Of a stretch of 64,000 nt of DNA, positions 16,193 through 16,855 are shown in pieces. The notes under the pieces are model-generated. The model ran no database searches and was not told where the DNA came from. It saw only the letters and a program-made list of their open reading frames with translations. Location of the stretch: the sequence record MG748547. One strand, written 5' to 3'. The translations under genes and the position numbers were made by a program. This DNA is from Escherichia phage EP75. Numbering within the stretch: the first letter of the stretch is position 1; each line of letters begins with the position of its first letter.

Positions 16193-16855
16193 CTATGATA
16201 ACTCATGGCGATGTCGAACACACGCAGGACAATCACAATTCTTTTTCAAAATTGGCAATTCACACCATGTCATTAAGTCATGTATTGGGGACATGTGATG
16301 ATAGAACCAAGATTTCTTGAGACTAATCAATGGATATAAAATTTCAATAGATCTTTCCCCGTCTCTGGTCATCATGTTGTATCCTTCAATAACTTTATTA
16401 AAGGCGGGTATCCAGTGTATTGCGTCATCGCCGTTAACATATGCCAAGATATACGTGGAAGGCAAGCCACTGCCTTTAAATTGCGTGTTTAATAACCATA
16501 TCGGGGCTTGTGCTAAACAAGCGCGAAAACCACCGTTCGGGACGTTGATGCTACTGATAGGTTCTTGATGATGTGTCCAACGATACATGAGAAGTGGGGC
16601 ATTTTTATTAATCCAGTTGTATATTTTATTCCTCGCCCAATTTTCGCGTTTAGATTTAAATTTATTATTTTCGAGGTGGCAATACACAGTATGAACTGAA
16701 TATCCTTTCGATAGCAACCAAATCAACATGTATGTGCTATCCACCCCACCAGACCAGAACAACGTCACTTCTTGATTATTCTGCGGCAATGGAGCATCCC
16801 CTTGAAGAACACGGTATACAAAATCACAATCAGATATTGAGACAACAATTTCCAT
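16193..16855 (-). CDS. PP-loop ATPase, QueC/ExsB-like
   Basis: PP-loop SGGVDS in LFWSGGVDSTYML. C-terminal Cys cluster CDCPACVRHRHE resembles the QueC zinc site. Confidence 0.55.
   Translation of the reverse strand: MEIVVSISDCDFVYRVLQGDAPLPQNNQEVTLFWSGGVDSTYMLIWLLSKGYSVHTVYCHLENNKFKSKRENWARNKIYNWINKNAPLLMYRWTHHQEPISSINVPNGGFRACLAQAPIWLLNTQFKGSGLPSTYILAYVNGDDAIHWIPAFNKVIEGYNMMTRDGERSIEILYPLISLKKSWFYHHMSPIHDLMTWCELPILKKNCDCPACVRHRHELS

Follow-up and report, generated by a model that had tools for sequence, protein, structure and literature searches.

QueC, the 7-cyano-7-deazaguanine (preQ0) synthase, has long been viewed as an enzyme with a single job. Work of 2025-2026 described two bacterial repurposings of it for anti-phage immunity: Cap9, the N-terminal deazaguanylation ligase of type IV CBASS (cyclic-oligonucleotide-based antiphage signalling systems; structure 9NTO), and QatC of the qatABCD systems. 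Here we analyse a QueC-like gene of Escherichia phage EP75, located at positions 16193..16855 on the minus strand of a 64,000-nucleotide stretch of DNA (sequence record MG748547), below called the window. The gene encodes a single-domain zinc-binding PP-loop ATP pyrophosphatase of 220 amino acids with the QueC/Cap9 fold, a member of PHROG 1550, below called the PP-loop protein. Judged by its alignments, it is not an isofunctional QueC, since the side chains by which CDG (7-carboxy-7-deazaguanine) is bound or converted in QueC and Cap9 are replaced by a different conserved set. With a probability of about 0.6, it is an ATP-dependent adenylating ligase or amidotransferase that acts on a substrate other than a deazaguanine and represents a phage-only family, a diverged sister of QueC and Cap9.

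The canonical QueC signature consists of SGGxDS, YxQxHxxE, VPxRN, YPDC, K165 and C(x)8CxxCxxC, and E. coli QueC requires the residues Y35, R99, Y131 and Y189 (Libby et al. 2026). In the structure of Cap9 with CdnD the deazaguanine is held by R86, Y115 and D117, the QueC equivalents of which are R99, Y131 and D133. The tyrosine of YPDC stacks on the base and the aspartate reads its Watson-Crick edge, while the arginine of VPxRN stacks on the deazaguanine in Cap9. QatC retains the ATP and zinc sites but has other residues in place of those recognising CDG, which sets a precedent for a remodelled pocket.

QueC-like proteins of phages have been noticed before. In a screen of all GenBank viruses, QueC is the only column that has an entry for ViI, CBA120, PhaxI, SFP10, PhiSH19, phiMAM1, Noxifer and others, and such singletons were discarded as uninterpretable (Hutinet et al. 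2019, Supplementary Data 1). Thus the observation of an orphan QueC-like gene is already in the literature, whereas its meaning is not. These singletons, PHROG 1550 ("QueC-like queuosine biosynthesis") and the GenBank "alpha hydrolase" are one and the same family, which has been catalogued and either named by similarity or set aside as ambiguous. We found in the literature no functional or active-site study of QueC-like phage proteins, and none of a PP-loop protein occurring with SNF2 and PolB. What is new here is the absence of the substrate residues of QueC and Cap9, with a distinct conserved set in their place, the very large size of the phage-only clade, and its consistent embedding in replication modules.

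Family assignment

Searches with the single sequence match the PP-loop only and do not assign the protein to a family. The Pfam QueC model (PF06508) scores 23.7 bits against a gathering threshold of 22, and the match is limited to 32 PP-loop residues (33-64); the Pfam scores of ThiI and MnmA are 20.9 and 17.2. The QueC equivalog model TIGR00364 gives 17.8 bits against a cut-off of 150.3. Other NCBIfam models are also far below their cut-offs: TilS (14.3 against 93.6), MnmA (16.1 against 284) and ThiI (15 against 264.5). The PADLOC "QueC" model matches residues 25-82 only, and a phmmer search of the PDB likewise did not reach beyond the PP-loop. Therefore a profile of the diverse family was needed.

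The model of PHROG 1550 matches residues 1-219 (E-value 9e-82), and the protein has, besides this full-length match, the family motifs SGGxDST, NN, E, Q, Y..NDDA, FPL..K, CE and CxxC. An orthologue profile was compared with 1.84 billion representative proteins (50%-identity clusters). It retrieved 1,154 clusters at E <= 1e-3, of which 478 reach E <= 1e-10; the proteins are mostly about 200 amino acids long and match from end to end. In a sample of 53 members sharing 24-58% identity with the query, 49 match the Pfam QueC model, although weakly (best E-value 1e-10).

When a profile of these 53 sequences was compared with solved structures, QueC of B. subtilis (3BL5) was matched over the full length at 7e-10, followed by Cap9 at 2.4e-8 and a second QueC (2PG3) at 1.4e-7. 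All other PP-loop families scored 8.6e-4 or worse, with matches in the N-terminal part only; among them are TilS (0.023), ThiI (0.056), TtuA (0.096) and MnmA (0.13). Matches to the QatC chains are not significant (E-values 0.5-0.7). Alignment of profiles by hhalign with E. coli QueC has a probability of 93.5% and covers residues 28-216. A structure search of BFVD returned only other phage proteins, either unannotated or labelled "QueC".

An earlier note on this DNA, made from the sequence alone, had described the protein as QueC-like and suggested its comparison with QueC, TilS, TtcA, ThiI and asparagine-synthase-like families. The likeness to QueC stands, is shared by Cap9 and extends over the full length; that to TilS, ThiI and the TtcA/TtuA type does not go beyond the PP-loop. 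No unrelated PP-loop family with a known phage role gives a better match. The similarity to YcfA (9KQ6), which presumably acts in 6-thioguanine synthesis, to the nitrile synthetase ArtA (9LEH) and to the ammonia-dependent NAD/NMN synthetases is also confined to the PP-loop, and the C-terminal parts differ. Domain fusions gave no functional clue: members of 300-435 amino acids have no recognised additional Pfam domain, except for one weak helix-turn-helix match and one weak ADP-ribosyl cyclase match.

Conserved motifs and the substrate pocket

The pyrophosphate-binding motif SGGVDS (residues 35-40; 16736..16753, minus strand) and the C-terminal cysteine cluster CDCPAC...H, both pointed out in the earlier note, are read directly in the sequence. 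The cluster is a Cys4 zinc knuckle (16211..16264, minus strand) that aligns to the zinc motifs of QueC and Cap9. The C-terminus reads C198-E-LPILKKN-C207-D-C209-PA-C212-VR-H215, and the zinc motif C198-x8-C207-x-C209-x2-C212 is a one-residue spacing variant of the QueC motif C-x8-C-x2-C-x2-C. More distant relatives have the canonical CxxCxxC spacing (CGxCxxC). The motif residues, including S35, G36, G37, D39 and S40, are all invariant in an alignment of 20 orthologues with identity down to 53%. In the 53-member alignment G37, D39, S40, D143, P175, K181, C198, C209 and C212 are invariant and G36 nearly so; cysteines conserved throughout the family are limited to the four of the knuckle. Thus the adenylation apparatus is intact: the SGGxDS loop, the acidic segment N-D-D-A after strand 4, the lysine of F/L-P-L-x4-K, and the Cys4 knuckle starting with CE.

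The gene is real and under strong purifying selection. This follows from the candidate Shine-Dalgarno box AGAGGA (16864..16869, minus strand) read directly in the sequence 8 nucleotides upstream of the ATG, the overlap of the ATG with the TAA of the upstream open reading frame (ORF; TAATG at 16853-16857), ratios of nonsynonymous to synonymous substitution rates (dN/dS) of 0.03-0.19 relative to the orthologues, the invariant motifs, and the AlphaFold2 model (mean pLDDT 85.6, pTM 0.87). The model is a single 220-residue domain in which no RNA-binding module or additional domain is seen.

The residues of the pocket were mapped by sequence alignments only (hhalign and HMMER), which disagree by two residues around positions 145-150. 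In both alignments Y35 of YxQxHxxE corresponds to L61 (isoleucine in relatives) and Q37 to N63, within the segment L61-E-N63-N64-K65. The arginine of VPxRN (R99 in QueC, R86 in Cap9) corresponds in both to Q116, within A-Q116-A-P, and this glutamine is conserved family-wide. Y189 corresponds in both to E199, the glutamate of the dipeptide CE, as in Cap9. The motif YPDC is recovered in neither alignment: the region reads D143-D144-A-I-H-W148-I-P-A and lacks the base-reading aspartate. The two alignments, being two residues apart here, differ as to whether W148 (tyrosine or phenylalanine in relatives) stands where QueC and Cap9 have the stacking tyrosine. A set of nearly invariant residues is particular to the family: N63, N64, E71, Q116, Y139, D143, A145, F174-P175, K181 and C198-E199. 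In these alignments the pocket that holds CDG in QueC and Cap9 appears to be rebuilt with N63, N64, E71, Q116, Y139, D143 and E199.

Of the features that define QueC (PF06508 cluster 1; TIGR00364; 3BL5), the PP-loop protein retains the SGGxDS loop and, as a spacing variant, the zinc motif. It has neither YxQxHxxE, VPxRN, YPDC nor Y189, scores below the TIGR00364 cut-off, and shows no linkage with que genes. It differs from QueC by L61, N63/N64, Q116 and E199, by the CxCxxC spacing in Kuttervirus, by the absence of linkage with queD and queE, and by the occurrence of the family in phages and viral contigs only.

The comparison with Cap9 is similar. The minimal QueC fold, CE(x)6CxxCxxC and PF(x)4K are shared. 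However, Cap9 keeps the QueC core motifs Y/FxQ(x)5E, RN and H(x)4YxDC, whereas the phage family has none of the three. Cap9 is host-encoded and sits beside a CD-NTase with an MGGS N-terminus and Cap10, whereas the PP-loop gene is phage-encoded and lies among early genes. QatC resembles the phage family in keeping the ATP and zinc sites while replacing the CDG residues. However, it is a protein of about 400-470 amino acids with N- and C-terminal extensions, a loop holding QatB, the zinc motif C(x)19CGxCxxRR and motifs of its own, whereas the phage protein is a single domain of 220 amino acids with a different motif set. The genes qatA, qatB and qatD are absent from all contexts examined.

The 7-deazaguanine pathway and DNA chemistry

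The rest of the 7-deazaguanine pathway was not detected. Search by tblastn with E. coli QueD, QueE, FolE, Tgt and QueA produced no match below E = 0.5 in the window or in the complete genome of phage aagejoakim. The latter shares 99.8% identity with the window in this region and has no annotated queD, queE, folE, tgt or dpdA gene. This agrees with the published screen of viral genomes and with the earlier note, which had seen no FolE, QueD, QueE, DpdA or Tgt in the 64 kb; the complete aagejoakim genome extends that observation beyond the window. None of the family members examined lies next to que genes.

The DNA of ViI, CBA120 and their relatives contains the four canonical nucleosides and a single fifth peak, the hypermodified thymidine 5-NeOmdU. 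There is no bulk replacement of guanine in these phages; trace modifications are possible. Lysates containing ViI gp67, gp160, gp226, gp243 and gp247 sufficed to reconstitute 5-NeOmdU, and single steps were performed with purified proteins. Since these five other gene products suffice, the PP-loop protein is not needed for the known hypermodification. A role in it was rejected on this ground and because there are Taipeivirus genomes without the PP-loop gene.

Distribution

The family is large, and all members found are from phages or viral metagenome contigs. Search by tblastn identified the PP-loop protein in 198 phage records, essentially all of them Ackermannviridae (Kuttervirus, Agtrevirus, Taipeivirus and phiMAM1-like phages), with a few Vibrio phages. 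A distant member used as the query added Pseudomonas phage Noxifer, Ralstonia and Burkholderia jumbo phages, Vibrio phages YC and GR28A, Erwinia phage phiEa2809 and some mycobacteriophages; the same set was found in BFVD. No cellular relative, and no cellular homologue with an informative operon, was found in a scan of one genome for each of 185,579 bacterial and archaeal species with a single peptide pattern.

Within Taipeivirus the gene is accessory. The exonuclease DexA was found in 45 Klebsiella phage records, whereas the PP-loop gene was found in seven, and Klebsiella phage FKP14 (PP974339; L091 5001-8124) has the syntenic block of DexA, phosphoesterase and dCMP deaminase without the PP-loop gene. 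In Serratia phage vB_SmaA_3M (NC_048736; L052 5698-6489) the gene has lost its N-terminal third, including SGGxDS, and the remnant is fused in frame to the upstream ORF, which is separate in phiMAM1. This copy is probably inactivated.

Genomic context

The context outside Ackermannviridae was analysed in 64 distant viral loci from IMG/VR. A SNF2 helicase gene is situated beside the PP-loop gene in 40 of the 64 loci, and a PolB gene in 24. One large lineage has the order SNF2 helicase, a 120-residue protein, PP-loop, PolB. Other loci have UvsX/RecA, FEN, DnaB-like helicase, PP-loop, or gp32-like single-stranded DNA-binding protein, UvsX, PP-loop and then SNF2. Adjacency to SNF2 recurs in at least four lineages with 31-41% identity of the PP-loop proteins and different gene orders, and in one more contig. 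In yet another contig the neighbours of the PP-loop gene encode FEN, an SbcCD-like protein, a YfbR-like nucleotidase and a nucleoside deoxyribosyltransferase.

A Pfam scan of the neighbours in 17 lineages found, among the 25 families listed out of 49, RecA, DnaB_C, topoisomerase, FEN, SNF2, ParB, DNA methylase, NAMPT, PARP, dCMP deaminase, RNase_T and deoxyribosyltransferase; QueD, QueE, FolE, TGT and CD-NTase are not among these 25. In Ackermannviridae the directly adjoining genes vary; those of the phosphoesterase, DexA, dCMP deaminase and topoisomerase II remain in the vicinity.

There is no partner protein common to the whole family; the small upstream ORFs of different lineages are unrelated. 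The 120-residue protein is specific to one lineage. It is encoded between the SNF2 helicase and PP-loop genes at L079 5643-6005 and in 25 other loci (cluster c2), its stop codon overlaps the start of the PP-loop gene, it begins with MG or MA in 24 of the 26 loci, and it has a conserved N-terminal NPFxD. It was considered as a QatB-like partner for the whole family and rejected, being unrelated to the other upstream ORFs (hhalign probability at most 1.1%).

Proximity of tRNA genes was also rejected as a clue: a tRNA gene was found within about 6 kb in only two of 39 loci. In one of these two, an unrelated viral contig of 25 kb (L016), the genes of tRNA-Tyr, tRNA-Lys(CTT), tRNA-Tyr and tRNA-Asp(GTC) (3416-5630) are directly upstream of the PP-loop homologue (at about 6001). 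This is the second co-occurrence with tRNAs of the queuosine family and may be due to chance.

The topoisomerase II genes also recur. In a 358-kb IMG/VR contig (L035 5980-10612) the PP-loop gene is directly followed by those of a T4-type topoisomerase II, which encode its large and medium subunits. In Kuttervirus the subunit genes are 4-8 kb away from the PP-loop gene.

Possible functions

If the family is indeed an adenylating ligase or amidotransferase, the PP-loop protein would be catalytically competent, bind ATP and adenylate a substrate other than a 7-deazaguanine at a carboxyl or carbonyl oxygen, and the activated group would then be passed to ammonia or another amine, as suggested by the generic chemistry of the superfamily. 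The genomic context suggests an accessory early gene acting alongside the DNA replication and nucleotide metabolism functions of the phage. The protein would have no part in queuosine or preQ0 synthesis, and the 5-NeOmdU pathway does not need it. The earlier note had offered, as the last of three possibilities, that the protein adenylates a different substrate, and the evidence favours that proposal. One tentative elaboration, which we hold to be doubtful, is that phages have remodelled the QueC scaffold for a new pair of acceptor and donor, either in a so far undetected modification of nucleotides or nucleic acids in the course of replication, or in capping or diverting the N-termini or precursors used by the immunity systems of the QueC family (qatABCD, type IV CBASS).

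Several observations weigh against this interpretation or weaken it. The class of substrate is only inferred, and an aromatic residue (W148; tyrosine or phenylalanine in relatives) could fill the position of the stacking tyrosine, so that a planar, nucleobase-like substrate is possible. The absence of cellular relatives rests on the scan with one peptide pattern. One lineage accounts for many of the 64 loci, and the occurrence in replication modules may stem from a common time of expression and not from a common function. Finally, the gene is dispensable in close relatives, which fits a host-specific auxiliary or counter-defence role equally well.

Counter-defence is one of the outcomes of another scheme, in which the protein, like Cap9 and QatC, activates an acid as its adenylate and joins it to a protein at the N-terminal amine, for regulation or against QatB or the CD-NTase of type IV CBASS. 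The Cap9-like fold, and the dipeptide CE at the start of the zinc motif and the motif P-F/L-x4-K, both shared by the family with Cap9, are consistent with it, as is QatC, where N-terminal targeting was kept while the CDG-binding residues were replaced. The patchy presence among close relatives is typical of counter-defence genes, and the MG/MA start of the 120-residue protein in one lineage (24 of 26 loci) recalls the MGTS and MGGS tails of QatB and CD-NTases. However, there is no such partner family-wide, and the proteins encoded by the neighbouring genes in Kuttervirus start with MKEQ and MKRS. Nor are CD-NTase, Cap10, QatA, QatB or QatD encoded nearby; the extensions by which QatC holds QatB are absent; and so are the residues by which Cap9 holds the nucleobase, which would call for a different donor acid. 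The stable position between SNF2 and PolB in many loci would also be unusual for a counter-defence gene. On balance we consider a protein modifier of this kind unlikely. An enzyme modifying tRNA in the manner of TilS, ThiI, MnmA or TtcA, for instance one making lysidine in the phage tRNA with the CAT anticodon, is less probable still. Action on tRNA had been proposed in the earlier note, with a TilS-like enzyme for the CAT tRNA, and the weak matches of the PP-loop region to the ThiI, MnmA and TilS models, the presence of that tRNA and an isoelectric point above 8 in 20 of the 53 members are in line with it. However, these matches are limited to about 40 residues of the PP-loop and far below the cut-offs given above, the E-values of the family profile (0.023-0.13) compare with 7e-10 for QueC, and the median isoelectric point of the family is 6.5. 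There is no THUMP domain or other RNA-binding module, no C-terminal domain of TilS, no barrel of MnmA, and, apart from the Cys4 knuckle, neither a catalytic cysteine nor an Fe-S triad; tRNA genes are almost never nearby.

The earlier note had also suggested that the protein uses preQ0 precursors of the host. It would then be a working preQ0 synthase, or a variant forming 7-amido-7-deazaguanine or another amide, that takes CDG from the host to increase the preQ0 and queuosine available to the phage's own tRNAs of the queuosine family (Tyr, Asn), or for a minor DNA modification. The homology to QueC over the whole length with a zinc motif of the QueC type, the marginal Pfam match, the tRNA-Tyr(GTA) and tRNA-Asn(GTT) of the phage itself, the contig with two tRNA-Tyr and one tRNA-Asp directly upstream of a family member, and an aromatic residue that may persist at the stacking position all agree with this suggestion. 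Against it, other residues stand in place of the essential Y35, R99 and Y189, and neither alignment recovers YPDC; R86, Y115 and D117 of Cap9 (R99, Y131 and D133 of QueC), which contact the deazaguanine, have no counterpart. The score of TIGR00364 is far below the cut-off and the Pfam match covers only the 32 PP-loop residues; queD, queE, folE, tgt and dpdA are missing from the genome and the list of 25 neighbour families contains no que genes; a QueC is already present in the host; 5-NeOmdU is the only non-canonical nucleoside in ViI, CBA120 and their relatives; and tRNA genes of any kind are rare around the gene. This makes the suggestion very unlikely. Least probable of all, in our estimate, is that the gene is a decaying or non-catalytic remnant that hitch-hikes or retains a structural or binding role only. 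Its absence from syntenic Taipeivirus genomes and the truncated, fused copy of Serratia phage 3M would fit a remnant. However, the strong purifying selection, the invariance of the catalytic motifs across 53 diverged members, the more than 1,000 clusters at 50% identity and the confidently predicted fold are contrary to it.

The findings have several consequences. The phage family marks a third remodelled branch of QueC with more than 1,000 clusters at 50% identity, next to the two bacterial ones. The term "queuosine biosynthesis" is a mislabel in RefSeq and in PHROG-based annotation of about 200 Ackermannviridae genomes, some of them of phages used for biocontrol, and a corrected label would prevent the false conclusion that these phages have 7-deazaguanine DNA or boost queuosine. 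Identification of the substrate could reveal a new modification of nucleotides or proteins by phages. Should the protein indeed use a new acceptor-donor pair, it would represent a fourth functional class after QueC, Cap9 and QatC, and the first that is virus-encoded. Kuttervirus is a tractable system, with culturable hosts, natural presence and absence variants, and known DNA chemistry.

The locus in phage EP75

Over the 3.5 kb around the PP-loop gene the identity with Salmonella phages S115, aagejoakim and rabagast is 99.8%, and 198 records, almost exclusively from Kuttervirus and related Ackermannviridae, reach 80% or more. Thus the window comes from a ViI-like phage. The gene is one of seven on the minus strand that overlap or abut within a block of 3 kb, in the order 98-residue protein, PP-loop protein, YunG-like protein, metallophosphoesterase, DUF7618 protein, HAD-type protein and 116-residue protein. 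The block is bracketed by two strong terminator-like hairpins on the same strand, one upstream (17208..17225) and one closing it (14203..14225), both from a consensus scan only, which suggests a single transcription unit.

The upstream ORF of 98 codons (16855..17151, minus strand; PHROG 9302, function unassigned) is translationally coupled to the PP-loop gene. It occurs only in Kuttervirus and has no homology, by hhalign, to the small upstream ORFs of other lineages. Downstream there is the gene of a 113-residue YunG-like protein (15849..16190, minus strand; PF24591), which adjoins the PP-loop gene in Kuttervirus and Agtrevirus only.

The neighbours named in the earlier note are all present: the metallophosphoesterase (15289..15867, minus strand; PHROG 547), a recurrent neighbour in Ackermannviridae; the small HAD-type protein with N-terminal DFDGT (14592..14963, minus strand; PHROG 1238); and the DexA-type DEDDh exonuclease (17591-18223; PHROG 255). 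The tRNA genes are also as described there, Tyr(GTA), Asn(GTT) and one with the anticodon CAT, which is Met; they are at 51918-52733 (minus strand), about 35 kb away from the PP-loop gene. Two of the three, Tyr and Asn, belong to the queuosine (GUN) family.

A 206-residue protein encoded at 18557-19177 (minus strand) is assigned to PHROG 335 ("phosphatase") and annotated as Tk.4-like. It has no Pfam match at E <= 0.01, and its N-terminal pattern NGDLL...AHGANC...GAGIA resembles the macro (ADP-ribose-binding) domain. The YunG-like gene of one close relative (L002 6666-6962) has an in-frame deletion of 15 codons and encodes 98 amino acids instead of 113. The small HAD-type protein is called "phosphoheptose isomerase" by both PHROG and RefSeq, a label that looks like a misnomer. 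In an unrelated viral contig (L017) the gene directly upstream of the PP-loop gene encodes a homologue of it.

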